Shown here: positions 378 through 61,421 of the stretch, piece after piece | How positions within the stretch are numbered: the stretch's first letter is position 1 | How the letters are laid out: every line of letters begins with the position of its first letter | Assembly (NCBI GenBank): GCA_010015805.1 | Contig: ML978124.1 | Coordinates: 2,418,001 to 2,482,000 of the forward strand | Length of the DNA stretch: 64,000 bases | DNA from: Rhizodiscina lignyota | Lineage: Eukaryota | Reading direction: 5' to 3' | Program-made: the position numbers and the translations under genes | The notes under the pieces: model-generated | Told to the model about the DNA's origin: nothing | What the model saw: only the letters and a program-made list of their open reading frames with translations | The model's database searches: none

Positions 378-2893
378 TTTTCTGAGCTTGCCTGAGATTA
401 TACTACCACACTGGCAACGAAATGGACTTGCAAGCCTCCATGATTGGAAGGCAGTCAGCATTTATACCCAGAGGATGTCACTGAGACCATTCCCCGCGGC
501 TATAAACGTGCCATGGACAAAAGATCCTATTGCCGGCGTGGTTCATGGTGCCTGAGCAAGAATTGCAGCCTGTCGTCTAGGGCAATCACTGCCAGCGTGC
601 GCCGGCAATTAGACGGGCGACGAGGAGAAAGCTGAAATTTCTCATCAACTGCTGCAAGACTAGAGCAGTGGAAGTAAGCCTCCGCCCAGCGGATACTTGC
701 AATCTTGCTGAAATTCCCTTGCAATTCCCATCTTGGGTCTGAAATCGGACAGAAAGCCGTGAGAGGTTTGGAGGTTTTGTGACGTCGCGAGAGGGGAACA
801 TCGAAAGTGACTTGCGGGGAACTGCTGTGGGGCAAGGAAGCCCTGATGATCGCCCCCTTGGAGAACAGGCGACAGAAGCGATCAGTCCAGATTTTCATGC
901 GAACAGCCGGAAATCTTCGGGAAGAGGTGAGAATCGAGTTCGGAGATATTGTTAATTACTTTCATTAACTTCCAAAGGGAGAGAGAGAAAAAGAAAGCTT
1001 CGAGGTTGTGGTAATGAAACCTGAACTGCAGAAGGGTGGCCAGACTGCTCCGCAGCGCTACAAGAAGGATCAGACAAAAGTCGCCGAGCAGTTGGAGACT
1101 GTTTCAACTCGACTCTAAATTGCAAAACTCAATATGATAGGTTCTAAGTATCGTCTCTGAGACAGTCAAACGCGCTGAAAGGGTGAGCAAGCTTTGTCAG
1201 AGCAACGACACAATCCGATCCAAAGACTATGAGTAATGGACCATGGGAATGGCACCGAACAGTCTTTTGCGAACGCTTGGACAGAAGTAGACTCAAAAGT
1301 ACAGCATGGAGAATCAAGCGTTGATGATGCCCTGTTCCTCCATCGGATATTACAGTGAGGATCAGTGCTGCAGCGAGGAAACGAAATAAGAAAAGAGAAA
1401 TGTCAAATTTGCCTTTGGCTGAGGGAAAATAAATATTGACTACGGCAATATGGAGGACGGAAGCAATCTTATCTGCCGCGTAACACGTTACAATGAAGAT
1501 AGCTCCGTGGGACCGTGATACATGTTCGATTCAGAGCAGCTGGCGCGGAAGTGCAGCGACTTGCAAAGGCCAAGTTTGTTATGAAAGGGGACTGTATAGC
1601 GCTCGCCTAATTTCGTCCGGCTTTGCCAAGGTCCAAGTCATCAAACGAATTATTACTGTAGCGGCGCCTGCCCGAAAGACCTTAGCTTAGATGCGAATGA
1701 AGATTGCGATGCCGCGGGCCCGTCCATGCTTAGGACGGAGCTGCTTCTGGAAGGGCTCACAGAAGGAAGGCATGATGGTGTGGACAGCGATGATCGTTGA
1801 AGACGAAGGCATCGAGTGCAGACATTGGATTAGCTGGAGATTTGGATGAGCTTGAAGCGGCTGGGAAGGTTCCTGTCGGGCTGTTCGACGCTGGAGGAGG
1901 GCCAGGGTGGAGGGAGAGGACGAGAAGCTCAGACGGTGAGAGGGCAGGAGGCGACGCTCGTGCTTCCTGTTCCTGGCGCTAGCACACACTAGGCCAGCGG
2001 CAGCCTAGTGTATCAGCCTCTTTCTTGGCCAACCTCTGTGGCAGTCCTGGCCGCATCTCCTCCAAAGCGACCACCCGCTGCAACTGGCCTGCGAGTCACG
2101 TTGCTCTGCGGAATTTCGGGAGCGGAAGTGAACAGCGTAGCTTCGAGGGCGTCCGCGGCGACTCCCATGTCCTGCAATGTCATGTTGGATAGGCTGCTGT
2201 GACCGTGGAAGGTTCGTAAGAAGATCCTGGAGAAGCATGCGCTTGTCAATGCGAGGAATCAATACCGACCAGGCCTGGAGTGGATTCAGCGCTCCCTTTC
2301 CGCCGTACTGGGCGGCCAGAGAACGTGGCACAAGCGATGCTCGACTTAAAATAAGCCTGGCGATGCGCGAAAGCGCTGTAATTAATCGGGACGTGATGTT
2401 GATCTGTGTGTTGTGCGGAGCCAATCAGCGGGCGTGAAGCAGTCCGCAATTTGCCAGCCCGCAGAACGGCGCGCCCACTGACTTTGCCGACGCCGTGCGC
2501 TCCTCCTCACTCACTCATCACGCACTTCATCTCTTCTTCGTCGAGAGGCAGCAATTGTCCTTCTCTCCTCACTCTCTTTCACTTACGGCAGCATTGTCTC
2601 CAGTCGCTCGTTAATTCTGTACTTACTCCAGTCATTCATTTGATCGGGCTAGACCCTGATACGCCAGCTTGTTTGTTTTCGACAAAGGAATTGCAGAGCC
2701 TCGCAGCCTCCCTCTCCCCTTTGCCGACCAGCACGTTCACGACGACCGATTTACGACCTCTAAGCACGACCCAGCGAGCTTTAATTCACCATACTGTAAT
2801 TCGACAACTTCCCAATGCAGCCTCGGTAGCATCGAGCACCTCCACTACGCGCTTTGTATTCTGTCTTCGCTCCGGTCCGGCATACAAGGCACA

Positions 2894-5144
2894 ATGAACG
2901 ACCACCTTCACCACCGTCATTCCCTCTTCCACAGGCACACTGCAGGCGCTTCACGACGTGTCAGATCCTTCGAAGAGCATCACCATGACGCTATACCTGT
3001 TCCTAATCGTTCCATCCAGGAGAGAGGCCCGGACCGCGTTCTTGTAGCTCGCAGCTCAAGCTCAAAGACATGCACAGACACCCAGAGTTCAAATACCTGT
3101 GAATTGCCTACAGACACCTCTGGCAACTTGTCAATCATTCTCGGAGTTGTGTATGTGTTTCGAAACATTTCGTTTCGAGCCCCGCTAATTTACTATAGCA
3201 TCCCGGTCGTCATATGTATCATTGGGTGCATCTATCTCCACCGCAGATATCTTCAACGACAGAAACGCGAGGACAATGACAGCAGGCACAAGTCGCTGGA
3301 CTTTGGATTGGAAGTTGCCCGCAAGTTTTCGAAGAGGGGAAAGAAAGGTCAGCAAAAGATTCCTGAAATGAGTGTCACCGACTTCGAAAAGTCCGTTCGG
3401 CATGGACGGGGCCTGTCAATGGACGCGGATATCACTAGCCCGTATATTCTCCCCGCGGCATTGAAAGGGTCGAGAGAGTCTATCCACTCGCTTTCCCGGT
3501 CAATGAATGATGAATATGATCCTTACCGCCCGGTCACCATGGTCTCTGGTGACAATTCTTCGATACGACATCCTCGTGGCCGTGGAGGAGACAATGAATC
3601 GACTATGACAGACTCAAGCCGTGGCACGGATGCATTCACTGCTGGTCTGCTAAAGAATGCCAAGGGAATGTCAGCATCTCCACCTCCTAGAGGCGACTCA
3701 ATGTCACCCAATCGCAACGAGTCGATGTCTCCGTCTCTCAGCGCGGCCACATTCTCCAAGGAGGTGGAAATTCCATCCAACCCCCCTCCGCCGCCTGAAC
3801 CACCAGCGAATGCATACCTAAAGAATACTGTGTACCAGAAAGAAGCTCTGTCTCCACCAACGACCGAACCAGAGCGAGATTCCTACTTCGAGAAGAACGC
3901 CCAGACCTTCCTGAGTGACGACACATATGTTCCTCCCCCGAGATCAGCATCTAGCCGTGCTCCAGCGTTAAATCAGTCTCCGCCGAAGAGTCAGCCTAGC
4001 CTTCCTCAGATCGACGTGCAGGAGCATGACTTTTCCAATACCGACTGGCATCAAGGACAAGATCAGAGTAGAGCACTTCCTCCTCGCGGCCAATCTCTGC
4101 AGGACTCACAAACTCCCCAACAAGAGCCAGTCCCACGGCCTCGGAATCTTGGTGTCGACCAGCCAGACAACAGTAACCACAGGCTGTCTATCAGTGTTCG
4201 CCCACTGCCTCCAGAAGACCCTTCTGAGGATGCTGAGATGCGTGCCAATCGCATTCGGTCATTCTACCGTGAGTACTTTGACGACTCAGGGAAGCATCCG
4301 GTGGAGGAGATGCCTCAGAATCCATACGCACAGCAAGACTATTACGAAGACTACGGCCAGGAATTCCTCAATGATGGTGCCGTCTTCGATCCTGAGACTG
4401 GCCAGTTCGTCGTCGCAAGCAAGCCTTTCTCTGAACCTGTTACTCGTCGCGCAATGACCCCTCCACCCCGAGCTCCTCCGCGATTCAAAGGCGGAGCGAG
4501 AGGTCACAACTCGGGTGGTTCGCTGCACTCAACTGGCACCTTCGCGACCCCACCCCGTGGTCATTCCGCCATGAGCAATCGTGGATTCCAGCCCAAGCCC
4601 AAGCGCCCTCTGGCCCCTCTTCAACCGCTCAAATCGCTGCCTACACCACATTTACTTAAAGATGATACAAACCTCATCTTCTCGGCGGCGGACTTCGCCC
4701 CTCCGGTGTCATATAGGGACAGACAAGCAGGACGTAGACCCGACAGCCCGTTAGGCACTGCAAGACCCTACTCCCCGAGCGTCAAGGCCTTCACCCCGCT
4801 CACAACCAGTTTGGACGATCTCACCGTTATGCCTAGCCCGTAAGTCTTCCTGATCTCCCTCTATCTCAATGTTCAAACTAACTTCTTTGACCAGACATTT
4901 GCTTCGCAAATCTGGCACCTTCACCGCCCTGGATTTCGCCCCTCCAACGAAATTCCGCGACATCGACAGCGGCAGCGACGTCGCCAGCATGCGCTCCGGC
5001 CGCTCTGGCCTCTCGCAAGCCCAGGTCTACAACATCCGCGCCGGCGCGTACCGCGTCAGTCGTATTCCTAAAGAGCTGGCTGGCACGAAGGATGAGCTTA
5101 GCACAAGTTTGAAGCCGACGTGGGATCTGCGTGGTCCCGCATAG
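2894..5144 (+). CDS. Conserved fungal single-pass membrane protein with a long Pro/Ser-rich cytoplasmic tail, function unknown
   Basis: ATG 2894. An in-frame 48-nt intron 3151-3198 (GTATGT..GCTAAT..TAG) splits the TM helix IILGVV|IPVVICIIGCIYL. Intron 4840-4894 joins MPSP|HLLRKSGTFTALDFAPP. Other conserved-looking blocks: RANRIRSFYREYFD, EPVTRRAMTPPPRAPPRF. Confidence 0.8.
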
Positions 5145-7390: not shown

Positions 7391-8678
7391 TTCAGGTGCA
7401 CTTTGGCCAGAGAGGCCAAAGAAGCCAAAGAAGGTTGAAGGGGCTGAAAGAAGAGTGGTAGAAAGGATAACCAGTGGTAAAGCGAACTGTTCTTAGCTAT
7501 TTTCACTCCTAACTATAGGCCAGATAGGGCCAACCTGACTTTATTCTTAAAGGCAGACGCAAGCGCCCATGTAGGCCACATGCAGAGGTGCAGTGGCATA
7601 TCTGCACCTGAAGCCAATCAAGAAGTAAAGTACAAACCTGAAGCCCTCAAGGCCTCAAAACTGCCGAAGAGAAGAAAAAGTAATAAAATAGGAAAGAGAA
7701 GGCGCAACGGAAATAGAATTAAACGGAAATATGCGCTTGAGCTGCATTCACACCCACCCTTAGGATTGGACTCCTTAGACCCAAGGACAGTGCCCACCGA
7801 TTCTAGGTGGTTCGCACCTACGCTTAAGTAGCAATGCCCCCAAAATCGGTCCATCTTCGGGATTCGGTGTGGTACGAGATCTCCCACGCTTACGTTGGGC
7901 TTTTAGCTCCGCGTTCCACCTTACTTCTTTCTAAGAGATATACGCAACATTAACAGGCAGTCTTAATATGAGATAGTGCATGTCCTAGTCCTTTATCATA
8001 CTGACTTGACTCTCATGAGTAGAATCAAGACTTGTCCAGCCCGGGACATCCGGCCTTCTAGTCCTGCAGCCGGTTCAGCCCTCTGGTTCAAATTATTTTT
8101 TTTGTCTCTGCCTGCTCCTCTCAATCACTTGGATGGATTTCATTCTTGTCTCTCGGACTCTACTCTATCCAGCCGCTCTCAATATTCACCATCCAGATCA
8201 GGTTCTTGTCTCCGCGAAAGCAAGCCAATCAGGCATGACATGTACTTTCAAAAATGAGGCTGATGCCTAGGGCATTCAGTTTAAGGCAAACATGCAGCTG
8301 CTGGAAAATCTTAATGGCTAACAGCGGAGCCATGTACCTTTAATATTCTCCCATTGGAGAGTTTTGAGGGGTTGTTGTTCATGGTTTGAGACTGCCAGGG
8401 CTGAATCTATTGGGCGTTACGAGTTCATGGGAATCAACATCCTGGCAGCCCGGTGGCAGAGCAACAGTCCGCATGCAGGTAGCGGTTGCCTTGTTGATCA
8501 CGGAACTGCGCGAGACTAACTTAGGCGCCTACAGGAATACACCCTCTATTCGACGCTGCCGGGACATCATTCTGTTTATTCTACCGTCCAGCCAATGTGC
8601 AGCTTAACCAGAGAAGCTCAATTCAGTTGGGAAAAGATCGATTGATGGGCTAGATATCCTGCTAGGATACCAGCTGTG

Positions 8679-11378
8679 ATGTCCGGGTACAGGTTTACCT
8701 ATTCGTGGCAGAACAATAGCCCGCCTGTCAATCGGCCTCTTACTCCACCAGACCTTACCGAATGGGCACCAGACCCTCGGTTGCAGAAAATTGGTCTTGC
8801 AAACAAGCCAGCAGCTGAATTTGATAACTTCTATACACCTCAGAATCAATCCTTCTACTCAAAGTCCCCATATCTGCCCTTAGATCCAAAGCGGCGCGAA
8901 ATCCGGCTTGTCAAAGTTCTTGGACGAAAGCCTTGGGCCGAGTACGTTACAGCAAATCCTCAACGGGTGCAGAATGGTCTAAATGGAAAGTTCGCGAGAC
9001 CTCAAGAGCGGCGACTCCCTAGCAAAAAGGAGCTGTCTAATCCCTCGTCGTCCCTGCTAATGGCATCCAATCCATCGCCAATGACATGCGAATTGGTCGA
9101 CAAAGTTGCGCTTTCAAGAATCGATGGGCACTACTGCACCTTGTCGTATAATGCGGGGAAGCCAACGGATACAAAGACAATGATTGTGGACGGCATAGTA
9201 TTCAATGCGTTCGCAAATCTCGAGCACGCGATCGGATGTGCCTTCGAGAGTTGGTCATCAAGGAACCCCGGCAGGGAGCTGCTGCTATGGGTTGATCAAA
9301 TTTGCATCAATCAGGTGGACCAACTCGAACGAGGAAGCCAAGTTGCAATGATGAGAGATATATATCGCAGGAGCAATGAGACCTTCATCTGCTTATCCAC
9401 TCCCGGAGCAGAACACTGCTTATCATGGGTTCCTCGTGTCCCACGAAGGGTATCCAGTGGCCGGCCTTCCACACAGAGCATCGGGCCGCGAGAAGAATGG
9501 CCTGCCGTATCGGCTCTCAAAATGTGTCTTCGACGGTTACTTGTCGGACCAGATGCGTCTATCTCTCCTCCAATAGCCCAGCGTAGGCTTCAAGATACTT
9601 CGCATCGTCGGGATACCTCGCGTCATCGGGATACATCTAATCATGAAAATGCAGCACGCCGTCGAGCTACATCGAAGCATCGATATTCATCCTCTTCCTC
9701 CGTGTCAAGTCCAGAACCGAGCCCCCCACCTGTAGATAAAAATCTCCGGCGACATAACAAAACTCAGCCTACGAAGCCTGTAGCAACAGAGCATTCCGAC
9801 TTGTTGGCGCCTAAAAATGGCGTTGGAAAAACGAAATCTGCGGTAGATGAATGGGTGGCTGGGTCACCACGACCTCAGGGAGTAGCTGTACGTGTAAAAG
9901 TTGCGCCAATGCGACCGAACACTGTATCAGCGGAACAAGAGACTTCATTATCACGACCAGAGACTGTATCACTGCATGGAAATACCGCAATATCAAACGA
10001 AGTAACCGCCGATCGATTGTTGACTGGCCTAGAAGCCTTCACTACGAGCCAGTGGTGGGGTCGGTCATGGGTCTATCAAGAATTTATAGCATCTCCTCGG
10101 CCTCATTTTCTCTCAGGCTCCACTTCAATTCCTTGGACAGAGCTGGCACCTACTTTGGAGTTTATCTGCGGCGGCCTCGATGCATTTATTGACCCAATGC
10201 TTTCGGAAGCCATTACCAGCGCTTCGCAAGAGGACAAGCAAAAGAACAAAGATGCTCAAGAGGAATATCAGAGAAGCTTACGTGAATACGAAGAAAAGAT
10301 GAACATATATCAGCAGCAGAGCCTTCTGGAGTTGCGAAAGTGGTGGCAAGCGCGCCAGATTTCATCCCTATTAACATACGGGACTGGAAGCTTCAAAGAG
10401 GCGAAGCGTGAATGGGAAAATGATGTGCGAAACGGATCTGGCGAAGGTAGAATACTGACCAGGGGATTCAAGCCAAGCTGTTCGCGACCCAAGCCCCCAG
10501 TTCAGCAGCCATTGGCCGTAGCAGGAAAGCAGCGGGCCCAACACTTGTCTTCCCTTCAAAATCGGTTCCGAGCACTGAGTACATCGACAATCTCTTCGAT
10601 GGTGGAAGGCAAGGTGAACCTGCGAAGGTCTTCGGACCTAAAGACCATTCTACAGCATTCCAGACATTGCAAGGCATCAGACCCCCGAGACAGAGTTTAC
10701 GCATTCATCGGTTTGGCGGACAAAGAGTACGCAATTATCCCCGACTATTCCACGAGCAATACCGTAGTCCAGGTCCTAATCAATACCGCGCGGCGAATCA
10801 TTGAGCACGAAAAGAAACTTAGTATCCTCAAGCACGTGTGCCACGGCCGTGAAAAACTGGGCTGGTTGCTTCCTTCGTGGGTGCCTGATTGGACCAGCAC
10901 GGAGGTCGACCGAAGAATCAAAGACTCCGACTTGGTCTGGAGTGGCGGACAGAGGGAGAGATCGTTTGATGCGTCAAAGGGCCTGGTCACTCGGCCTGAG
11001 TTCCGGAAAGACGAAACGAACGAGTCCAACATGGATTTGAAAACCAAAGGTGTTTTTTTCGACTTTCTTGACGAGTATTACGAGGCCGACGAACCGGACG
11101 GGGCTGAGGATGCCTTTCCACATTTTCAATCTTTCTTGACCCAGAGCAGTCGGCGAGTTATTGCCCCCAAATCTGCTCTTTTGGACGATGAGGTCTGGGT
11201 TCTCCACGGTGCGTCAAAGCCTGTGCTTCTACGGCCGGAGGGTGATGATACGTATGGCTTTCTCGGTGAGATTTTGGTTTGTGAACGGAACGGCACTTTT
11301 TCGGATGTAATGTTCGGCAAGATGATTGAACTGGCAGAGCAAGGGAATGCGGAGACGAAGGATATCTGGATTGTGTGA
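8679..11378 (+). CDS. HET-domain (heterokaryon incompatibility, HET-6-like) protein
   Basis: HET motifs YCTLSYNAG, LWVDQICINQVDQLERGSQVAMMRDIYRRS and WWGRSWVYQE, plus the HET-6-type C-terminal blocks ASDPRDRVYAFIGL, LPSWVPDW and DEVWVLHGASKPVLLRP. First ATG is at 8679. Confidence 0.9.
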   Translation: MSGYRFTYSWQNNSPPVNRPLTPPDLTEWAPDPRLQKIGLANKPAAEFDNFYTPQNQSFYSKSPYLPLDPKRREIRLVKVLGRKPWAEYVTANPQRVQNGLNGKFARPQERRLPSKKELSNPSSSLLMASNPSPMTCELVDKVALSRIDGHYCTLSYNAGKPTDTKTMIVDGIVFNAFANLEHAIGCAFESWSSRNPGRELLLWVDQICINQVDQLERGSQVAMMRDIYRRSNETFICLSTPGAEHCLSWVPRVPRRVSSGRPSTQSIGPREEWPAVSALKMCLRRLLVGPDASISPPIAQRRLQDTSHRRDTSRHRDTSNHENAARRRATSKHRYSSSSSVSSPEPSPPPVDKNLRRHNKTQPTKPVATEHSDLLAPKNGVGKTKSAVDEWVAGSPRPQGVAVRVKVAPMRPNTVSAEQETSLSRPETVSLHGNTAISNEVTADRLLTGLEAFTTSQWWGRSWVYQEFIASPRPHFLSGSTSIPWTELAPTLEFICGGLDAFIDPMLSEAITSASQEDKQKNKDAQEEYQRSLREYEEKMNIYQQQSLLELRKWWQARQISSLLTYGTGSFKEAKREWENDVRNGSGEGRILTRGFKPSCSRPKPPVQQPLAVAGKQRAQHLSSLQNRFRALSTSTISSMVEGKVNLRRSSDLKTILQHSRHCKASDPRDRVYAFIGLADKEYAIIPDYSTSNTVVQVLINTARRIIEHEKKLSILKHVCHGREKLGWLLPSWVPDWTSTEVDRRIKDSDLVWSGGQRERSFDASKGLVTRPEFRKDETNESNMDLKTKGVFFDFLDEYYEADEPDGAEDAFPHFQSFLTQSSRRVIAPKSALLDDEVWVLHGASKPVLLRPEGDDTYGFLGEILVCERNGTFSDVMFGKMIELAEQGNAETKDIWIV

Positions 11379-28026: not shown

Positions 28027-28177
28027 GAGAAGTGTGTTATGAGAAGTGTGTTATGAGAAGTGTGTTATGAGAAGTGTGTTATGAGAAGTGTGTTATGAGA
28101 ATTGTGTTATGAGAAGTATATTGTAAGAAGTGTATTATGAGAAGTATGTTATGAGAAGTGTGTTATAAGAAGTATAT
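28027..28177. repeat. 14-bp tandem minisatellite (GAGAAGTGTGTTAT) x ~10.8
   Basis: Five perfect units 28027-28096 followed by mostly degenerate units. It ends about 200 bp upstream of the CHK1 ATG. Confidence 0.95.
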
Positions 28178-28373: not shown

Positions 28374-30119
28374 ATGACTATACAACTTCCTTCGGTAAGT
28401 TTAATTCTCTTCACATAGCCTCCATCCGCTAACCCTCGTCCAGTCTCAGCAGGTACCGCTGCCAGTAAACTTACCATTCCGCATAATATCGAAGACAATT
28501 GGACAAGGAGCCTATGCTTCGTACGTGTCAATCTAACCGTGCGCTTTGAAGTACTTCTTAAATGCAACAATTGAAAGTCTGACCTACTTCTACTATTTAG
28601 AATCCGCAAAGCTATCCCACTCAATACCTCGAAACCAGTCATCGCCATCAAATTCATCAACAAAGAGCACGCCTACGCGCACTCACGCCTACGTCCGAAA
28701 CAAATCCAGACCGAGCTAGTCCTGCACCAGCACCTCGGAAAGCACCAGAACATCATCCGCTATATCGCGCATGGCGACGATCCACTATGGATATGGATTG
28801 GAATGGAACTTGCAGAGGGTGGCGACCTCTTCGACAAGATTGAGGCAGATGTCGGTGTGGGCGAGGACATAGCGCACTTTTACTTCACACAGCTGATCAG
28901 CGCGGTGTCATACATGCATTCGAAGGGCGTGGCGCATCGGGACATCAAGCCAGAGAATATACTGCTGAGTGGCGAGGGGAACTTGAAGATTGCGGACTTT
29001 GGGCTTGCGGCGCTATTTGTGCGGGATGGGAAGAAGAGGCTATGTAACACGGTATGCGGAAGTCCACCGTACATTGCCCCAGAAATTGTGGCCGGGAAGC
29101 GGAGCAAGAGACAGGACTTGCTAGAGACGGGCTATGCGGCAAACATTGCAGACGTCTGGTCTTGTGGAGTGGTTCTGTTTGTGTTACTTGTGGGAAACAC
29201 GCCATGGGACGAGCCGACGAGGCGGAGCTATGAGTTCTGCGAATACCAGGACAATAATGGCAGGACGACAGACGAGCTGTGGACGAAGATACCGCAGGAC
29301 ATGCTGTCGCTGCTGAGAGGCATGCTGAAGCTCGATCCGAAGGGGCGCTTTACGCTTGACGAAGTCCGCACACATCCCTGGTTCACTCGACGGAATCCTC
29401 ACCTCAGTTCCTCTGGCACCGCTGCAAATCCAATAGTCCTCGCGACCCAGATGCTCGAATCGCTCAAGATTGATCTGAACGCACGAATCACGCCTTCCCA
29501 GCTCGCTGCAGCATCTGATCCAGACGCTATGGATATCGACTCCGGACCCGCTCTTCGCTCTCGCTTCTCGTCCACTCAACCTGAGACGCCAGTAGCAGAA
29601 ACAATCTTCGACTGGGAGCGCCCTCCGCGACATCCTGCTGCTGACGGAATTTCAGCAAGCCAGCCAACCTATCCACAAACTCAAGTCTCCTCCGCCACAT
29701 TGGACCGTCTCGGTGAAGACCCGTCATTCTCACAATTCTCTCAGACGCCTGCAGTGCCGATGTCTCTCACGCAAGCAGCTCGTCACTTCGGCGACATCGT
29801 CCCATCGCACAGTTTGGCACGCTTCCTTTCACCTCTTTCCTTCTCATTGCTGCTGCAGTTGCTCGTGGAGGCTCTGCATCGCCTCGGCATACCAGCACGG
29901 GCAATACAAGAGCAGGGGAGAGAAGACGCATGGTGGATTCGTGTGCAGACTATCGATGGACGACAGCAGCCGTTAAGCGGGACTGTGTTCGTGGAGCGCT
30001 ATGATGGAGAGATGCTAGAGGTACGATTTGTGAAAGCGAAGGGAGATCCGCTTGAGTGGCGGCGGTTCTTCAAGAAGGTTGTTGTTCTATGTAAGGACGG
30101 CATCATGCTTCCGAGCTGA
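28374..30119 (+). CDS. CHK1: DNA-damage checkpoint kinase Chk1
   Basis: Exons 28374-28394, 28444-28520 and 28601-30119 give LPFRIISKTIGQGAYASIRKA..AIKF..MELAEGGDLFDKIE, HRDIKPEN, DFG and CGSPPYIAPE. The C-terminus has the Chk1-type KGDPLEWRRFFK motif. Confidence 0.95.
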
Positions 30120-49385: not shown

Positions 49386-50644
49386 TTTAGCCAGGCTGTC
49401 GATGCAGCTTTGGTCAGCCGAACGCTGCCTGGTTCCGCGTCATGAGACAATAGGCAGCTGTTGAGGATGTAGAATGGACCTCTCAGAAGCTGATGAAGAT
49501 GTTGGATATTGGCTCGAGCTTCCAATGGATGGAGAAGACGACGTCGGAGGTGGGATGGTCCGACAACATGGCCACGCTTGGAGCTATTTTTGGCCCCTGC
49601 GACCCAAACGCGGGAAGCCCCGCGGCGATCCGCCAAAACAAAACAAACCACCACCAACCTCCATCTCAACTTCCATTCGGCTATCCACCGACCACTCACA
49701 ACCGCGGATTGTCGCTACGCCGCACGATTCTCTTGCTCATATTCGTTCATCACAGTATCCTCAAACTTTCCAACATGGTTTTCTGTACTCCTCCAATTGT
49801 GATAGAGCTTCGTGGCCTATCGTCTACCTGCGCCGCACATGTGGCTTGTAACAGCAGTGAACGCCTCATATCAACAACCCCAACCCAGCCCACCTTACGC
49901 TCGTTTTCAAGGCGCTCGGCGGGAAGGCGGGCAGCTCGAGGCCATGCTGAGACATCTCGGTCGCATCGAATGACAATTCTATACCCTTTTTGGGGCTTTG
50001 CGGAGAGTTGCCGTTCATCTTGGCCGGAGGCTTATGCACTAGTTCCACTACAGCGCTTAGATCCGCCGCGCTTAGAGACCACATCCCATTCGAAGGCTTG
50101 CCTTCTACCAGCTCTCACTCGTCGGTTGTTTCCTATCCGGCTGCATGTGCTGCTTATTTTTGCATCTGTTCTGCATGTCAAACGTCCTCGTTCCTGCCAC
50201 CTCACCACCTTCTCGCCTTCTGGAAATCCTCCGGAAGCGCGAATCATGGCACAGCTGCGAGGCCGGCGAGAATTCAGGCACCATGATTCCTTGACATTTT
50301 CGTAGTCAGTCCAATGAGGACAGTATGCATCTACGCGCTGCCTCCGAAGTTAGTAGGTTCTGTTATCGGGCTGAATCTCGAGGCTTGCTTTGCCTCACTA
50401 GGTTCATGGATTAAGCGTCGCGATATCTGCAAGCATTCACGGTGCATGAAACATTAGATCGAGCGAATAGTTGACTATGAGTGTGGTGTTTGTTTTGTCC
50501 GTTTATGTGACCGTGTTGACTTTTGTTCAGTCCATATCCGCATTCTCTGCTGATCGGCTCCAGTTCTCATCGTGTTCCTTTCTCCTGACTACCTTTGAGA
50601 CAAACAGCCCTGGAGAGCTGCAATTGTAATTCTTTCAATTCTCA

Positions 50645-52963
50645 ATGGCGCATCTTGAAATTCCAAAGGCTCCGGGCAGCCCTACTACTACAATTCATTC
50701 CCAATCTGATACGATGGAGTTACCCCCAGGGTGGCCGCTCAATGACCGAAACAGTCCGCAGTTCGTGAGCCCATCGACGCACTATTTCCAGAATGGCGCC
50801 TCTCCACCGAGGGCAACAGCCTATGTCACCGACTACCCGATTGCATTCGACGAGAAGAGGCCAATTGAGAACCCTGAGTTCGGTCTTCCTCAGATCCCGG
50901 AGGCTGCTGCCATACCGAATAACGCCTTCTATCCGTCCCACGAGGATGTGTTGGGCCCTCACATCACTCAATCCCAATCAACTAAAAAGAGCTTTCGGCG
51001 AAAGCGATTCAACTTCAAGAGCGGTATCCAGCGTCTCTACGAAAGCTGGGTTGACAACTGGTGGCTTTGGGAGTTGATGGCGTGGTGTCTCAGTGCTGTC
51101 TGTATGGGCATTATCGCTCTAGTCCTTCTCCTTCTAGATGATACCCAAACTACCACCATGGAGGTGACACTCAATTCTATCATATCCGTCCTCTCTGGTA
51201 TCGCAAAAGCTGCCCTTCTTCTGCCGACTGCAGAAGCCCTGGGCCAGTTGAAGTGGAGCTGGTTCTGGCGCGACTCGAAGAAAGTTCGGGATTTTGAGAC
51301 GTTTGACGCTGCAAGCCGCGGGCCTTGGGGCTCTCTAATGCTTTTGATCCGAACGAAAGGAAAGTGAGTCGAATTGATTCTGACTTGCAGGTCTTTATTC
51401 GGATCCACTGACTGATGCTGCAGAACGCTCGCTACTATCGGCGCCGTCATTACCATCCTCTCCATCGCTGTCGATCCATTCTTTCAGCAATTGGTCATAT
51501 TTCCCCAAAAATGGGTCGCCCAAGGCACTGGAACCATGCCGCAGCTTCAGACTTACTATGGTTCAAACTACAACATCACCATGGCTGGCTCTGCGTACTT
51601 CTCGGCAGACACGGAGTTGCGGAGTTTCTTGGAACCAATGTTTTTTGGCCACGATCTGCAACCAAAAATCCCTCTGAACTGCCCAACAAGGTAACAAATC
51701 CGTATTAGTCCTTCTGGAGTCTTTGGGACTAATGAGTGCTGCAGTAATTGTACTTGGGAGCCTTTCGATACTCTCTCGATCTGTAGTGCTTGCCACGACG
51801 TATCTGACCTGCTCCATTACGGATGTTACAATACCACTTTGGATTGGCTCCATAACGTCACCGGTCAAGAGAAATCGCTCCCTGTCATCGAGACTTGCGG
51901 ATATTTCTTGAATGCAACATCAGACAACCCAACCCTTATGAGCGGATACATCCCTAAAGGAGATCCAGCGTTGCAAGAAGTCTTGATTGCGAGGCTATTG
52001 TCTATGGTGACCCAGACAGCAGATGGATACAAGGTGTACTATGATGGGTCCATCCATTTCAAAGATATCGTCAATCCCATCGCAGACTACATAACGGTCA
52101 GCGCTCCGAACGGTGTGCCAAGCGTTTACGGAAACTCAACGCCTGTCGCACAAGAGTGTGTTTTGAACTGGTGCACACAAAAATTCAACATGTCCTACTA
52201 CAGTGGCAATTTGACACAAATTCCGGTAGACCCTCCGCTGCGGACAACCGAGAAGACTCCATTCCCGTGGGCGATGGACGCTCCAGTGGATGGCCAGCCA
52301 AATTACATCTACTATGCCAATTTGTCACTTACTCCTCCGGGTCAGAATCTTACATTTTCCTTGTCAAACGACACCTTTTTCCAAACCATCGTCACAATCA
52401 ACGAATTCCTGCCCTCGCTTCTGACTGGACGAAGTGGCGACCCCGAGATGCAGTACAGATTCTACAACACTATTCCCCCGCCATTTGTGCGGCCTATGAC
52501 TGTGAATCCGTTCTCTGACATCGTGAATTTGAACGACCGCGTTGGCAAGCTCATGACAAATGTGCTCCTTACATCTTTCGTGGGGGCGAACCTTCAGGTT
52601 GGCACAGCATGGGAGCAGGTGGTTTTTATCAACGTTCGTTGGATATGGATGGTACTCCCATTCACACTCCTTCTCTTTAGCTTGCTATTCTTACTTGCGA
52701 CGATCTTCAAGAGCGAGGATGAGAAAGGCGACATCGGCATCTGGAAGACATCTGCGCTAGCTGTCCTGTTGAATGGCCTCCGAGGAGACGTGCAGCGTCA
52801 AATGGGCGATTCGCACGAAATGGGCGAGGCACGAAAGAATGCTGAGGATGTCCGAGTCAAGCTGATGCTCAACAAAAAAGGCCGGTTCCGACTCTCTGGA
52901 ATCAACGGGCCGTCCTGGATGGTATCACCTCGAGGTGGACCTGGAGGGCGTACATGGTTTTAA
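50645..52963 (+). CDS. DUF3176-like multi-pass membrane protein (paralog A)
   Basis: WWLWELMAW, TLNSIISVL..AKAALLLPTAEALGQLKWSWF, FDAASRGPWGS, DPFFQQLV, CPTSNCTW, AQECVLNWC, INVRWIWMVLP..WKTSALAVL. Introns 51364-51423 and 51691-51744. Confidence 0.88.
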
Positions 52964-53290
52964 AATGAACACAGTATGAGAGAATTTCACCGACTACAGC
53001 TCGAATTGAAATTGATAATGGAGACTTTTTTTTGTGACAGACAGACCCATTGATTCACACAGAGGAAACTATTGAAGACAGGCAACAAATCGTCGAGGAG
53101 CCCCTAAAGAGAACCGTGGAGCCACGCCCAACACACCGAACGCACCAAGGAAATCCAGAATTTTGGACGACGAGACGTCAAAATATACATCAGAAACATT
53201 ATCACAGAAGAAAAAGGTGGCCAAATGGAACACATATCTGCGTCGCACCACGGACTGCCTCGGACTCACGCCAACAACACTCTTCTTTGT

Positions 53291-53920
53291 CTAGTAAGAG
53301 CCTGGCCCTTTCTGCATCAAGTCAGCGATACATCAACTGGTTCTCACCGGGGCATGACTTACGCCATTTGTTCCTCTCTTGGCTGGTTCAATGGGACCTG
53401 GAATCATTCAGTACATCGCTGCTTTCATATACAGTGAGACACATACTATACGAGCCTGGGCCTTTCTGTACCGAGTCAGCGATACATCAAACGTATCATC
53501 AGCCGGGCTTAACTTACACCATTCGTTCCTCTTTTATACGAGCCTGGGCCTTTCTGTGCCGAGTCAGCGGCATATCAGCGGGTTCCCAGAGGGACCTGAC
53601 TTACACCATTCGTTCCTCTCTTGGCCGGTTCAATGGGACCTGGAGTAATTCAGTACATGGTTGCTTTCATCTACAGAGACTCGAGTGTCACATACTGTAT
53701 GAGCCTGGCCCTTTCTGTGGCGAATCAGTAACACAGCCATGTCATAAGCAAAGGCATTACTTACACCGTTTGTTCCTCTCTTCATCGGCTCGATCGGGCC
53801 TGAGCTTGGTCAATACGCGAGCCTTTCTATCTAGGAGTGCACCAATACTGTAAGAGCCAGGTCCCTTCTGTTGTTGGGTCAGCTTGGGTCCTTTGATCGG
53901 GCCTCTACCGACTTACGCCG
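53291..53920. repeat. Degenerate tandem repeat of ~155-bp exon-intron-exon-intron units (one unit shortened), forming the KEP gene body
   Basis: Recurring plus-strand words gagcctgg(c/g)cctttctg, acttac(a/g)cc and gttcctctctt. Related introns share sequence, e.g. 53640-53695 versus 53398-53446. Confidence 0.9.
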
Positions 53921-54042
53921 TCTACCCTCTTTGCGAACGGCTCCACAAGCTCCCCATTTGCAACAGGAACCGCCAATGGCGCCGCCGCCACAGTAGCTGC
54001 CAGGGTTGCAGTGAGAAGGACGAGAAAATCGCGGGGCATCAT
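53291..54042 (-). CDS. Secreted Kex2-type repeat-peptide precursor (KEP), 114 aa, 9 exons; cores GTNGKGPGSY x4 and VDGKGPGSY x1
   Basis: Exons 54042-53917, 53867-53849, 53799-53765, 53714-53696, 53639-53605, 53553-53518, 53465-53447, 53397-53363, 53311-53291. All eight introns are 49-56 nt, GT..CAG, with branch-site-like motifs. The spliced CDS is 345 nt and open to a TAG directly after the last core. Confidence 0.9.
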
Positions 54043-55491
54043 CTTGTTCAAAGAGATTGGACGCGCGCTTAAGAATAGAAAGAGTCGAGATTAAAGGGTG
54101 GTATAGAGAACAACTGGCTGTTTGGTGTTGTGGATTGAAAGCTGTGTTGTGCAGTCTTTTCGGAGCGGTCCATGGACTCAATTTATGTTTGACATGGGAC
54201 AGGAGACACTCTTTCGAACGGCAGCCCTCAATGCGGAGAACACCATCCCGGCAGCGGTCAATAACCTCGAAGACGCACACAAAGAAACACATCACTCCAT
54301 CGCGCTTACGGATCTCGCCAATGACGTTTGTGTAACGAAACTGTAAAAACAGGCACAAGCAGCTTACTGGTCCAACGACTGAAAGGGCTGGAAGTATCGC
54401 AAAAGAAATGCCGGGCGCTTCGAGAAATGAGTCCAAGCAGCGAAAAGGGCTCGATGACGGTGGCCATGGAGTGCCCAGATCCCACGAGGCGGTCGCCATT
54501 CTTCGACCTTCGATACGCCAGACGCGGCCGATGGCATTTGTGGCGTGTGCTTCGAAACAGCCGACGCACGTCTCCCACGATTTCCGCACCACGGTCCACG
54601 ATAACGAGGGTCTGTACGAAGCAAAAACCTCAAACATTTGTGATTGTGGATTTTTGCTGTCGAGTGTCGTTGACTTGACGGGACGAGCTTTTCGCCTCAA
54701 ATTGTGATGCGCGGGTCCGGCCAATCAGAGGTGCAGGCTACCTTGTTCGCGCACGAACTCCACACAGCTACGCGCCAACCACCAAACATCCTCTGACATC
54801 TTCATGCAATCTCCACCACTCAAATCTTAACGCCAACCCTGCTCCATCAGGCTGATTCCCATTATAACGGCGACGCCAAAAGTTAAAAGGACGACGCCAT
54901 AAGCGTTCTCCTCGTCTCATCGTGCAGGTGCGACCGTGGAACTTGGAAGGCCTCGATTTTTCGTACTGCAACTCAGGGCACTGTCACCGCTTACCCGACT
55001 GCAAGGCACACATGCTACTTGTCAACATCCTTGAACATTCACTCACCGTCGTCATGTCACACAGTTATCACTACGTTACGCATGTTTCTGGCCCTTTCGA
55101 AGCGCCGAAGGATCTTTGCGTGTGATCTTTCTGCTTATGGATCGTGTACCGAGCTCGGATCATACTGGTAGTATGACCCAGTACCGATTCATCTACTTTG
55201 TACAGCCTTGCGCATTGTTCGCTATTGTTCCTCTCCAATAGCCAACTCCAGAGTGATTCACTATCGCTACGTGTTCATTTTGCGATCCTTTGTATCTAGA
55301 CAACGGTATATTCTCATACTGTAAATCTTGGGTTCGTAAGATAGTCGTTAGAGTAATGCCCGTAATTCTAATTGATGTACGGAATGGCCAACCACTCCAA
55401 ATCTGTCTTTATGTGAGCTCATTGAGAAGTCAAGAAATTCATGGGACCGTTAAATCAACGCAGTTATAAATCGAATATTGCAAATTTTCTA

Positions 55492-57592
55492 TCACTGCGA
55501 AGATACATGCTTTGAAAATCTCCACCGACCTTTACGCCCGCGCAATCGAACTATCAGTCGCGGCTCGTTGCGTCTTCTTCGCACTGTTGTCTGCATGTTA
55601 TCCTTCTCTTTGATCAAATCTTCTCTCAGTCCATGCATGAGAATCGCCAATGCCGAATTTTTCCACACATCTACGTCACCTGATCTGCTGTGCAAGATTG
55701 CTGCTACCAGGAATGCTAAACTTGAAAATAAAAGCACCAGTGGCAAAGAAAACCAAACCCATCGAATATGCACGTACGTCTGGGGACTCAACGCTATGCC
55801 TTCGACCATCTCAGTCCCATATGACGATGAGCGCATGACGTTCGTCATGACTCCCGCAATTCTGTCCAGCTGAGCAGTCCAGTTGTTTCCTGTTAGCCAG
55901 GGATTTGACGGAAGTTGAACTAGATCCGGGGGCCCTACGGGGTCATCTTCATACCTGACCGTGGGCGTGGAATTGCGGGCCTTTGATGTCGTGAATGCCT
56001 GCAAAGGTGACGACCAAAACACGATGATTTCGTCGAATTGGGTGTCATTGGAACTGGGCCCAAAAGTAGTGTTCGACCCTGGCGGTCGAATTGATGGCAC
56101 ATCATATATATAGTAATCCGGGCTCCCATCATCCATATCTTTAACATGCCATTCCGGGGAAGACATCTTCGTTCTGTTATCGTACTTTGCCACGACCGAT
56201 TCGTTATATTCTCCATTGAGAACAGATGCTTGGACCTTCTTGACACACCAATGGAGATTGCACTCCTGAGCTAGTGGTCTTGTATTGGTCTTCACGCCAT
56301 CGTAACCGCCTGGAGTTGCGATGATCATGACATCCAGAAGTGCAAGTGGTATATCCTTGAAGTGCATCGAACCATCGTAATGGCAAGTGTTACCGACGTA
56401 CGGAGCATTGAGAACGAGTGTGCGCCCAACTAAAACTTCGGATTCATTGGCAGAATTCTCATACCCGCTGACGAGCACTGGTGATGCGCTTGTGCCATTG
56501 AGGAAAAATCCGCACGTTTCGGGTGCTGGAACTTTTTTGTTGACATTAGTCGTAGTGTTGGCCGCCCATTCTTGACTGTAATCTACCACCGAGCTCTTCC
56601 AATTGACTGGCGTGGGCATGCATCTGAACGAGAGGAGGTCAGATATATCTGCACACTCGCTACAGACCCCCAAAGTTTCAAATGCGGGAAACTGGCAATT
56701 TCCAGTGGGACATTGTACTTTCAGATCCGGTTCCTTACTACTCTCATTGGAGTAGAGCAGAGGGGTAACAAAATAATTCATTGAGACATCCGGAGTAAAC
56801 AGTTCGCTCCCCATTTCATGAACAGTAGCCGGAATGAGACTGTCCCATTGATATACCACGCTTCTGGGGAGCATCGCTTCTTTGACAGGTACACTCCGCA
56901 GAGGAAATACTACAATTTGCTGGAAGAACGGGTCGAGTGCAATGGAGAGCAGCATGACTGCCGCACCTATAGTAGAAAGAGCGCTTTGAGACATAGTTGG
57001 TCAGCTGCACCGTATCCACTGCTGAGCAATCCTTGATCACATACCGGCCTCTCGTTCTCAGGATCAACATAAAGGAGCCCCAAGGTCCTCGGGTTGCCTC
57101 ATCAAATGTTTGAAAATCATTCACGTCACGGCCCCGAGTGGCAAACCAATTCCATTTCAGCTGTCCAAGCGCTTCTGCGGTCGGTAGCAGGAGCGCCGCT
57201 TTGGCAAACGATCCAAAAACAGAGACATAGGAGTTGATCGTTAAGCCCAAGGGCCACTCCGGAAGTGGGCGACCTTCATAGACGGCCAGGAAAATCGCGA
57301 TTGCACCCATGCAGAAGGCCGCAAAACACCAGCTGAACAATTCCCAAAGCCACCATTCGTCGACCAGGTTCCAGAAACTGCTGTTCGGCGCGACCCTCCA
57401 TGAGGTCTGTCGTCTGAAGTCGCGAACAGTAGGTACGTCATCTGCCGCTATTGACTGGTTGTTACTGCATTGCTCAGGAGTATCGTTTCGTGTGAATGAA
57501 GGGATCCAATGTCGTCTCTTTTCGGCAATCGCCCAGGAGTAGCTCGGAGGAGGACGGGGAAACACAGTGATGGACTCGACGTCAGAATCCAT
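55492..57592 (-). CDS. DUF3176-like multi-pass membrane protein (paralog B)
   Basis: WWLWELFSW, TINSYVSVF..AKAALLLPTAEALGQLKWNWF, FDEATRGPWGS; intron 56984-57044; DPFFQQIV, CPTGNCQF, AQECNLHWC, VHIRWVWFSLP..WKNSALAIL. Confidence 0.88.
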
Positions 57593-59285
57593 AGCATCCA
57601 ATCGCTGGAGTTGATGTCTCAAAACTGGTCAACTGACGTCTCAATAATGATAGGAAAGAAATGAAGGTCGCGTCACAAGCACATGCGTGAGTCCTGAATA
57701 TTAGAAGTTATTCAAACTATACAAAACAATGAATATCAAGGTGGCATAGCCCCAGTACCAACACAACATGAGACACAAAGAGATGCGGGTGTTCTCCCAG
57801 GCGCCATGGAGACAGGAGGTGATGTTGGAAGATTGTCGTTCACATCATCATTGACAGCCTCTGACAGGCGCGAGCAAGATGGAAGCGCGCTCTCCCCAGA
57901 CATGTTGGCTTGCGGAAAGTCGCCGCACAGAGAGATTCTCCTATATCGAGGTTGCGTGTAGGAGCAGGAATACATTGCAGAACGCCTACAGAGCGACTCG
58001 ATACTTCAGCGGCTATCGCAGACGTCGGCAATTCAGATGAACGAAGGCGGCCAAAAAGAAGCGCGGTGGTAACGCTGGCCATGCGCCGACCGACGCACTG
58101 CAGGTCAAGCAAAAGCGGCCGAAAAATGCTGCAGCAATGAGCGAGGGCCAACATGCGAACGCCGGACGAGAGCTTGGCCGTGGTTCGCAGGGCGGCCATG
58201 CAGGGCATTGATAATCAGGGCGCTCAGGGGAGAGACTCCTTTGACCAGGATAAAAGTGCACCAAGCTTAATTCGGGCCCCACGGCGCTTACGGAGTATTT
58301 ACTACACCAAGATATTAATATCTACAATTCTGGGGAAGCATTACGCGACGGCGAGGCAGACAAGAACTCGCCGAGTTCTGCAACTCGTATTTCAGCATAT
58401 GTATCATGTATGCAGCTCCTACGTCTGGGCGGCAGGAGTGATGGCGCTTCGATATCAGTGTCGACACGGATGGCTTTCCTGGCAGCACACCCCTTCAGCC
58501 GGGCGCACATCGATTACAATTCGACGTCCCCAAGAGCCTCAAAGTTAAGGGTCAACGAGGGCACCCACATGCAGTCCTTCGTCTCCCGCGAACGTTCTGT
58601 TTTCCTTCAAAGATCGCGTTATTTTCAATGAATCAGCCTTCCACTAATTCCGATGCTTGACCTCTTAGTTACCAGAGTCGTTTCATGTTCAAGTCCCCTC
58701 TACTCATTAATAATTGACAAATGCTGACATGTGATCCTCTACTGTATCTCGTATTACACTGCAGCTACTACTTGAACCTCTTCCTTGGTGACACAATTCT
58801 CAAACAGACGATCCATCGCTTAAAGCGATCGAGAAGAGAAACGGCTAAGGCTTGCCGTGGCAAGAGTGAGAGGCCGAACATCTATGCATTTGTTCAGTAC
58901 CGCTTGTGAGCGATAAAGAGAAATGGTTGCACCGAAGCAAGGCTTGAAATGGTGGGGTAAGTATCAAGGATATCCCGTGAGAGAATACGGAAATTGCAAG
59001 TCCTCCCAGACATTACAGTTTTGTGATAGACAGAGCCTGTACCTTGCTCACACTCCTCAGACCACTCCTCAGACCACTCCTGAGAACATGTCTGTATTAA
59101 CAGGTCTATCTCAATAGATGCATCTGCTGTGCTGCCTGCTCGGGCAGGTTATTGTGCCTGCCATTCTCTCGCTTCTTGGACAATTCATGTCCAGCCGCAA
59201 GATCGTTTATCGGTTGCTTATGAGCATCCGATTAACAGCAGATCAGTCATGATCCATCTGGACCTGCAGTTCCCTCAGATCGACA

Positions 59286-61421
59286 TCAAAGCTTACTCTG
59301 CCCTTCCTGCATCGGCAACGCTCCGCTCATGAACGGGCCATTCTCATCAGCACCCTGGCCAAGGAATACCGCATCTCTTCCCCCATGCGTATTCCACCAC
59401 GTCACGCACATCTGCGACCGCTCCGGATCCATCTCGCCACTGATGAGAATCTCCCACAACCGCTCCTGACATATCTTACGCATCGATACATCTGATACGC
59501 GATTGATGAGATTCGCAGACATGGGGAGAGACTCATCGAGTAGATCCAGAGGCAAGAATGGTAGAGCGTCGAGGAAGGTCAGTACTAGAACTGCTTGTTC
59601 TGATAACGGTGGAGAGTCGTCTGGTTGGGTCATTGGTGTAGTAGGCTGTGGCGTGTTGAGAGGTGTGGCTGGTGCGGAGAGAGCTCGGTGGTGGACAAGT
59701 TCCATCAGTGCTCCAGGAAGATCAGGTTGGGTTGCAGAGAGCGGTGCGGGTGGAGCAGTTACGCGCATCAGCGTCTTGAATGCAAGACGAAATTGGCGTG
59801 GAGAGAGATTGTGCGGGAAAACGCTGAATAGTGCGTCGACGTAGAATGGTAGATGTTTTGCCGTGAGTTCAGCACTTTGTGGTGCGGATAATACCGATAG
59901 TATTACGCTGTGTGCGGCCTCGAAAATGGGTAGTAAGTCATTGCTGCCACCCGCAGCGAGGTATGGTGCAGCCGCAGCTACGAGCAATTCTTCGTTTACG
60001 GTGGGCGTGAGGACGAGAGTGAAGTGCTCCGCCGTGTTGAGGAAATACAGGTCCAGACATCGGTCCAAGGCATTCTCTGGGATCTGGCCAAGCCCTACCG
60101 GCCTGATTGATTTCAAGAACGCGTCAGCATGGATCGCGTATGTACTGAGAATATCGATTGCTGTCAAACAGACGAATGTGTATTGAGTGAACGAGTGTGT
60201 GCCCGTTCTGGAGGAGATGAAGTAAAGATTCCTGAGTGCATGCAGAGACTGCGAAACCATGACAGGTGCTACAGCATCAGATGAGAGTAGCCTGTCGCCC
60301 AGAAGCCGTCCTATCGCAGCGCGAAGAATGATGACGCTTGCGAATAGCGTCGACCTGAGCAGCTTCCATAAGGGTGGTAATGTTGTGCGAAGCGTATCTG
60401 CCGTGAAGTATTGCGCCTCCTCCGAAGCATCGACTTCTGAGAGCCCAATCTGGCGCCATTGGGTGAGAAGAGACCTCGTGAAACCAGCAATGTCGTCTAC
60501 AAGCGTCTGGACGAGCAGAGAATCCCGTACTTGCTCCGCAGCATGCGCGATTAACCTCGAAAGCGGGCCCATGGATGCTACAAGCGGTCTGGATACTACT
60601 CTTGCAATCTGGCGAGCTGAGGCAGAGTTTGATGGCCAGTCAAACTTTTGATCCTCCGTTGTTTTGATGTGCATGCCGATAGATGCAAGAAAGTACGCCG
60701 ACTGGAAACCTTCAAGCGAGTAGTATGCCGTTCCAACCAAGACTGGGAGTAGTCCATCGTAATCCAGCTTCGCCCGATCCGCGTCCGAGAGGAGTGGGAA
60801 CGTATGATTTAGCACAAGCGTGATACAGTGTGCACCAAGTTCGTCGCCATTTCGGGCCTCAACAATAGCCAGATTCGTAGCTCTTGCTAATGCATCCTCC
60901 AAAGTTCGGCGCATCGAACGAGTGAGTCCCTCACGATCTTGTCCTTCAAAGCCAACAAACAGACCTCCGAGGACCATGAGATGCTTCCATCTTTGTGAAC
61001 GGTCGTCTGCTCCTTTGACTACTGCTTTCACCCACTCTTCCCGTGGCATGCCTCCACCAATCTGAGGCGTATCTGGATACAAAGGCTGTGGTTTATCCTT
61101 CTCCTGTATTTCTCCTTCGCGTACTAAAGTCGCAGCAGCAGAGTGGAATACACTCATCACCCGGAGGCATGTGCCCAGTCCTTCCGGTCTGTCCCATATT
61201 GCCGGTGCTGCTAAGAGGTGCGATGTGAGGAGTGTGAGGTTAAGCGGATTCGTCAGAGTCGTGAGAAGAGATGATGCGGTGGACAATAATCTAAGAAACC
61301 GGTATCAGTTCTGCATGAATGGAATTGCAGCTATCATTGTCACTTACCTGGGCGTGTCTTGTTGGTCTGTATACGTCTGTAGAGACCGAAGGAGGGTGCC
61401 GAGCAATCTGTCAGCAGGCAT
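59286..61421 (-). CDS. PEX8: Peroxin Pex8 (Pex17 in Yarrowia nomenclature)
   Basis: MPADRLLGTLLRSLQ..DTP|RLLSTASSLLTTLTNPLNLTLLTSHLL (intron 61291-61347), LDLYFLNTAEHF, FPHNLSPRQFRLAF, GEMDPERSQMCVTWW; ends in the PTS1 tripeptide SKL. Confidence 0.9.

Follow-up and report, generated by a model that had tools for sequence, protein, structure and literature searches.

A candidate nine-exon gene for a Kex2-processed repeat protein in Rhizodiscina lignyota

We analyzed a 64,000-nucleotide (nt) stretch of Rhizodiscina lignyota DNA from contig ML978124.1 (the window) and predict that positions 53291..54042 on its minus strand are probably a real, intact, unannotated Dothideomycete protein-coding gene. 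The predicted product is a 114-residue Kex2-processed repeat protein (KEP), a secreted precursor that carries five near-identical short peptides. The unusual part is the gene structure, which has two introns per repeat; at the protein level this is an ordinary KEP pattern. R. lignyota is a barely studied wood saprobe. It belongs to the Dothideomycete order Aulographales, which is saprobic on leaves and wood (PMC7082219; here and below, each article is cited for the parts of it that were available to us).

Exons and introns of the peptide gene

The gene model was obtained by reading the minus strand from 54400 to 53000 and then joining the exons by coordinates. Read from 54042 to 53291, it has nine exons and eight GT-AG introns of 49-56 nt. 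Exons 1 to 9 measure 126, 19, 35, 19, 35, 36, 19, 35, and 21 nt, and introns 1 to 8 measure 49, 49, 50, 56, 51, 52, 49, and 51 nt. The intron donors are GTAAGT (five introns), GTATGT (two), and GTATTG (one), and the acceptor is CAG in all eight. The predicted coding sequence is 345 nt long (114 codons and a TAG immediately after the final Tyr), with the frame preserved over all eight junctions. An earlier note on this DNA had proposed a hidden nine-exon gene with eight introns of 49-56 nt. Our model reproduces it exactly, with the same translation, and splicing by coordinates also bears out the claim that exons 2-9 are only 19-36 nt long. The features are as follows, in the order of transcription.

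54091..54093, minus strand: in-frame upstream stop TAA, 17 codons 5′ of the first ATG
53917..54042, minus strand: exon 1, 126 nt, with an ATG-ATG start, a signal-peptide-like N-terminus, the pro-region to VEPFAKR, and the VDG of unit 1
53868..53916, minus strand: intron 1, 49 nt, phase 0, type a (GTAAGT...GCTGAC...CAG)
53849..53867, minus strand: exon 2, 19 nt, KGPGSY and the first base of a Ser codon
53800..53848, minus strand: intron 2, 49 nt, phase 1, type b (GTATTG donor, branch-like TTGAC, CAG)
53765..53799, minus strand: exon 3, 35 nt, the remainder of SPIEPM, then KR and GTNG
53715..53764, minus strand: intron 3, 50 nt, phase 0, type a (GTAAGT...ACTGAT...CAG)
53696..53714, minus strand: exon 4, 19 nt, KGPGSY and one base
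53640..53695, minus strand: intron 4, 56 nt, phase 1, type b (GTATGT...ACTGAA...CAG)
53605..53639, minus strand: exon 5, 35 nt, the remainder of SPIEPA, then KR and GTNG
53554..53604, minus strand: intron 5, 51 nt, phase 0, type a
53518..53553, minus strand: exon 6, 36 nt, KGPGSY-KR-GTNG unbroken
53466..53517, minus strand: intron 6, 52 nt, phase 0, type a
53447..53465, minus strand: exon 7, 19 nt, KGPGSY and one base
53398..53446, minus strand: intron 7, 49 nt, phase 1, type b (GTATGT...ACTGAA...CAG)
53363..53397, minus strand: exon 8, 35 nt, the remainder of SPIEPA, then KR and GTNG
53312..53362, minus strand: intron 8, 51 nt, phase 0, type a
53291..53311, minus strand: exon 9, 21 nt, KGPGSY followed directly by TAG (53293-53291)

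There are zero ATG codons between the in-frame TAA and the start at 54042. The exons of 19-36 nt hold 219 of the 345 coding bases; singly, the micro-exons of 19 and 35 nt are not multiples of 3, and the 19+35 pair is. There are two kinds of intron. Type a (phase 0 in 5/5) lies between GTNG and KGPGSY, type b (phase 1 in 3/3) lies within the Ser codon that follows Tyr, and the exon context is constant within each type. Ahead of the last unit, which ends at the stop, the exon 6 unit is the sole one that lacks both a type-b intron and the SPIEPA spacer. The array grew through tandem duplication of an exon-intron-exon-intron module, which gives every full unit a phase-0 intron in the core and a phase-1 intron after Tyr.

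Other candidate introns of the window, those beside Pfam-supported exons (for example 16467-16417 and 28395-28443), are 49-62 nt long, start with GTAAGT or GTATGT, and have CTRAY as branch motif and YAG as acceptor. Two of them lie between two ALG10-family open reading frames (ORFs) and one lies ahead of a protein-kinase ORF. By length and signals, the array introns appear to match these local norms.

Selection and chance in the repeat array

The repeat units can be compared with one another in the spliced frame. The five KGPGSY pieces have 30 synonymous and 0 non-synonymous pairwise differences, and the four KRGTNG pieces have 13 and 0. The repeated exon pieces have 17 variable sites, 15 of them third positions of codons in the spliced frame (binomial p = 4.5e-6). 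In units 2-5, 8 of 54 exon columns are variable versus 45 of 108 intron columns (Fisher p = 6.5e-4), and with the divergent first unit included the counts are 26 of 54 and 78 of 112 (p = 0.01). Identity is 50-77% among the introns, which differ in length, and 83-100% among the exon pieces of units 2-5, which are free of indels. Because the copies differ almost solely at synonymous sites and the exons vary less than the introns, comparison of the units shows long-standing purifying selection on the predicted peptide, in exactly this spliced frame.

The locus also stands out from the rest of the window by chance tests. A degenerate KGPGSY-coding pattern occurs five times in the 64 kilobases (kb), all at this locus, against an expectation of 0.01, and none of 100 shuffles reaches five. 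Under a strict intron definition (GT[AG]NG[TC] donor, CTRAY branch, YAG acceptor, 45-75 nt) the two strands of the window contain 35 candidates, of which 5 fall within 750 nt here; other 750-nt stretches have at most 2. A chain of eight candidate introns with stop-free exons of at most 40 nt is found only here; the rest of the window has no chain longer than 3. The longest chain in each of 40 first-order Markov resamples was 3 (26 resamples), 4 (12), 5 (1), or 6 (1).

Several points weigh against a spliced gene of this kind. A search for sequencing runs that contain the stretch gave no RNA run; the single run is a DNA contig identical to the window, with no joints. The intron 2 donor, GTATTG, is non-consensus and the weakest of the eight (it has no G at +5), introns 4 and 7 have CTGAA and not CTRAY branch motifs, and the strict definition admits only five of the eight. 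An internal exon of just 19 nt is extreme, and before 2024 no functional microexons had been described in filamentous fungi, according to the available text of PMC11121469. The signal peptide was assessed by hand and not with SignalP, and no relative was found by protein searches with exon 1 or by a DNA-pattern search of metagenome contigs. Finally, the units are duplication copies, and the statistics treat these non-independent copies; since the units are not independent draws, the density, chain, and motif figures overstate the significance. The codon-position test is free of this weakness and is the decisive internal test.

That test bears most directly on the idea of a non-coding, minisatellite-like tandem repeat, whose splice-like motifs and open frame after splicing would be a single chance event that duplication then copied. 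All units come from one module, so the eight good introns are not eight independent events, and it also fits this idea that neither an RNA run nor a homologue was found and that the public annotation seems to have no model at the locus. However, codon position 3 would not take up 15 of the 17 variable sites in a neutral repeat, which also leaves unexplained the 43 synonymous versus 0 non-synonymous pairwise differences in the core pieces. Nor does it account for exon pieces that are free of indels beside introns of varying length with 45 of 108 columns variable, or for the in-frame junction of the repeat with an exon 1 that is not itself repeated and that has an ATG, an upstream stop, and a hydrophobic leader. 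We consider a non-coding repeat quite unlikely. Coding on the plus strand, antisense to the repeats, has a probability close to nil. The stop-free frame at 53038..53853 is long for random sequence (271 codons), but it lacks a Met codon and matches no Pfam family. The variable sites are synonymous when read on the minus strand and not when read on the plus strand. The plus-strand frame reads the five KGPGSY-coding elements in three frames (offsets 1, 2, 0, 2, 2), and therefore there is no repeated peptide on that strand.

A minus-strand frame that overlaps exon 1 (53879-54724) was set aside; it is in a different frame from exon 1 and has no Pfam match. Introner-like multiplication was also considered and rejected, since what the eight introns share with the rest of the window is limited to chance matches of 11-12 nt. 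Scans for Rfam families and tRNAs at the locus were empty. The array was not reported by Tandem Repeats Finder because its units are too divergent and carry indels; another repeat search did report it.

Predicted precursor, its peptides, and related families

The predicted product begins with a hydrophobic leader and a pro-region that ends in VEPFAKR, followed by five KR-delimited units in which KGPGSY is invariant. Four units start with GTNG and one with VDG, and KR is present at all five internal boundaries. Three units have a spacer before KR (SPIEPM or SPIEPA), and in the exon 6 unit KR comes right after Tyr. The N-terminus has Arg4 in the n-region and a 15-residue hydrophobic stretch, then small residues (V-A-A) before A-P; Kyte-Doolittle hydropathy over 10-residue segments peaks at 2.44 for residues 6-15. 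The layout of a signal peptide followed by KR-delimited repeats, as described in the earlier note, is supported by the spliced translation, the hand-judged leader, and the codon-position pattern.

If the precursor is handled as in other members of the family, it would enter the endoplasmic reticulum and lose its signal peptide near residues 20-21. In the Golgi, Kex2 would cut after each KR and Kex1 would trim the KR. The peptides released would be two 10-mers of GTNGKGPGSY (936.4301 Da), two copies of the core with SPIEPA (1530.7314 Da), and one VDG-type first unit with SPIEPM (1532.7181 Da). With Kex2 and Kex1 as the only enzymes, three of the five units would keep SPIEPA or SPIEPM. This qualifies the earlier proposal of GTNGKGPGSY as the mature core: it is plausible, being common to all GTNG units, with two units that end at Tyr, but the exact 10-mer is only a prediction, and the other units would need additional cleavage after Tyr. 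For the gene as a whole, the selection seen among its own repeats gives a cheap, testable hypothesis with three predicted masses and eight junctions.

KEPs are defined by a signal peptide as well as a pro-region and near-identical peptides separated by KR (PMC6339444). The product here has an N-terminal signal peptide by our assessment and five near-identical units separated by dibasic sites (the class allows KR, RR, or KK), and so resembles the KEPs surveyed in 2019 and 2020 (PMC6339444, PMC7329392). It also has a lineage-specific core with no database match, as is typical of the family. It differs from them in that eight of its nine exons are only 19-36 nt long and each full repeat has two introns. 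KEP cores are described as highly diverse (PMC7329392, in which Table S2 has 7,886 rows). Because of this diversity an unmatched core is the norm, and the suggestion of a new secreted peptide class is not supported; such a core is expected within KEPs. We predict that the gene is probably best classed as a KEP of unassigned function with soluble, unmodified peptides.

The searched supplements of PMC7329392 and PMC6339444 have no occurrence of KGPGSY, GPGSY, SPIEP, or GTNGKG. Rhizodiscina is absent from the strain table of PMC7329392, and PMC6339444 screened predicted secretomes built from protein catalogues. A full-text literature search did not find GTNGKGPGSY, GKGPGSY, or KGPGSY. The 2020 survey presumably mined predicted proteins too. 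Introns and exons are not mentioned in the main texts of PMC6339444 and PMC7329392, and a paper on Agaricomycete KEPs speaks of introns only in relation to cloning from cDNA. Papers with both KEX2 and micro-exon terms were absent among the matches listed, in a limited search that is not proof of absence.

Two better known kinds of precursor share the KEP layout, and the earlier note had drawn analogies to both. Alpha-factor-type precursors (MF-alpha1 of Saccharomyces cerevisiae and those of Dothideomycetes) have a similar secretory precursor, Kex2/Kex1 logic, and repeats of about 10 residues. The locus could thus encode the alpha-type mating pheromone precursor of the species (the ppg1/MF-alpha equivalent) with a divergent core, since the layout of signal peptide, pro-region, and KR-separated repeats of 9-24 residues is the same and Dothideomycete pheromone cores are strongly divergent (PMC6339444). 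However, in the alpha precursors of Ascomycetes KR is immediately followed by XA/XP dipeptides (the STE13 signature), and Dothideomycete pheromones are of the PYG[L/M]P[I/V]G type (Pleosporales) or the two-Cys type (PMC6339444). Here KR is followed by V-D in unit 1 and by G-T in units 2-5, the core has no Cys and no PYG[L/M]P[I/V]G, and the spacer is C-terminal to the core and not N-terminal. With both the STE13 signature and the core motifs missing, the analogy does not extend to membership, and a pheromone precursor is very improbable.

A dikaritin-type precursor is likewise very improbable. The locus would then encode an ustiloxin/phomopsin-like peptide with a cross-linked Tyr, and the tailoring genes would lie outside the window, which reaches about 53 kb on one side of the peptide gene and 10 kb on the other. 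UstA and PhomA are dikaritin precursors with tailoring clusters. As in such precursors, KR-delimited repeats each have one Tyr (here at the C-terminal end of the core), and the core is embedded in residues that need trimming; removal of the flanking SPIEPA would require an extra step, as in those pathways. PMC7329392 considered how the presence of Tyr in the repeats of KEPs relates to DUF3328 genes nearby. The window was scanned with Pfam over 94 of its 127 stop-to-stop frames of at least 110 amino acids (aa) and 10 more, and these 104 frames contain no DUF3328 (UstYa-type) or other tailoring family, with no tyrosinase or methyltransferase match; there is also no DUF3328 among 38 frames around the locus. 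The neighbors are housekeeping and DUF3176 genes. The Tyr in each core therefore comes without a DUF3328 gene in the scanned frames, and membership among the dikaritins is not upheld.

We return to a KEP of unassigned function, for which other repeat and micro-exon genes offer comparisons. The Rep1 peptides of Ustilago maydis are longer and amphipathic. Rep1 is likewise a Kex2-processed repeat precursor without the STE13 signature, but its peptides remain attached to the hyphae (PMC6339444), whereas those predicted here have 10-16 residues and are hydrophilic. The micro-exon genes (MEGs) of Schistosoma mansoni also encode secreted products almost wholly from very short exons, and the modular exons of both would permit in-frame exon skipping, but MEG introns reach 5 kb (PMC10526429) and those here are 49-56 nt; here, moreover, the 19+35 pair is a multiple of 3 and neither exon alone is. 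The likeness to MEGs is an analogy of architecture only, and sequence and lineage are unrelated. The most likely role is that of an unmodified, diffusible extracellular peptide for signaling or interaction, and not of a mating pheromone or a cyclised toxin, because the predicted peptides are small and hydrophilic and there is no tailoring enzyme gene nearby in the scanned frames.

Annotation status and gene neighborhood

The genome's predicted proteins are present in the collections that we searched, because the C-terminal exon of a neighboring gene (gene B below; 55495-57000, minus strand) was found there at 100% identity, as the NCBI/UniRef entry [quoted passage not shown]. Exon 1 of the peptide gene (42 aa) matched nothing at E <= 0.01 among 419 candidates, which were proteins of 75-2000 aa sharing words with it. 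A HMMER search of exon 1 against 1.84 billion representatives gave only two long matches, of 3594 aa and 844 aa, the former in 14 Ala-rich stretches; both were taken as low-complexity noise and rejected as homologues. An annotated protein with exon 1 would be an obvious match, so the peptide gene is very probably unannotated, a prediction that rests on exon 1 queries and leaves a model without exon 1 outside its scope. A DNA pattern of GTAAGT-N35-55-CAG with KGPGSY codons had 0 matches in metagenome contigs. The next-best relatives of gene B are only 23-35% identical, so sequenced close relatives seem to be scarce.

A KEP gene made mostly of 19-36-nt exons is invisible to ORF scans, and this one seems to be missing from the public proteins of the genome, as would fit a gene that predictors overlook. 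Should genes like it be common, fungal secreted-peptide catalogues would have systematic gaps, and splice-aware repeat searches of raw fungal DNA would find more.

The genes recognized in the window include ALG10, GINS Psf2, RasGEF, a protein kinase, a peroxidase, GH43, bZIP, CENP-N/CHL4, DUF3253, an ABC-2 transporter fragment, and two DUF3176 genes. The last two flank the peptide gene.

50630..52963, plus strand: gene A, DUF3176 membrane-protein gene (Pfam DUF3176, E 2.8e-25), convergent with the peptide gene
55492..57628, minus strand: gene B, DUF3176 gene (Pfam DUF3176, E 2.2e-28), upstream of the peptide gene on the same strand

The stop of gene A is about 330 nt from that of the peptide gene. 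Genes A and B are paralogues, 35% identical over 405 aa. Both look like membrane proteins with a middle part rich in Cys and N-glycosylation sites.

We also considered that the intron-per-module layout is functional and not incidental and, separately, that the flanking, receptor-like DUF3176 proteins may belong together with the peptide gene as a unit. We hold this as a speculation that is unlikely to be right. Because phase and exon context are constant within each intron type, any type-a donor could join any later type-a acceptor in frame, and likewise for type b. If the layout is functional, alternative splicing could set the peptide copy number and the ratio of bare 10-mer to spacer form from a single gene, which would resemble what has been proposed for schistosome micro-exon genes.

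Three metagenome loci (L001, L002, and L003) encode DUF3176 relatives, and a convergent small repeat gene is present in L001 only; L002 and L003 have no comparable small repeat gene. In L001, an unspliced ORF (3005-3316, minus strand; 103 residues) with a signal-peptide-like start lies tail-to-tail with a DUF3176 homologue (1070-2503, plus strand), the protein of which scores 230 bits against gene A and 213 bits against gene B. The small ORF has four copies of a 17-residue unit, SASWTPKKGAGSGISGR, which contains KKGAGSG, and it is possibly a KK-type KEP. It has no relatives at E <= 0.01. By analogy, this arrangement would echo the pairing of gene A with the KGPGSY gene. One recurrence in three loci is not evidence of functional pairing, and it is a weak lead.

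Two tandem DUF3176 paralogues lie on the single metagenome contig of L003 (983-3463 and 5098-7560, plus strand). The family thus duplicates locally there, as in the window.

Elsewhere in the window, open frames of 672 codons (59289-61304, minus strand) and 727 codons (2660-4840, plus strand) have no Pfam family at E <= 1e-4. A tandem repeat at 28027-28173 (14-nt period, 10.5 copies, 90% matches) lies just upstream of the protein-kinase ORF at 28575-30116. A 910-codon frame (8646-11375, plus strand) contains a HET (heterokaryon incompatibility) domain.

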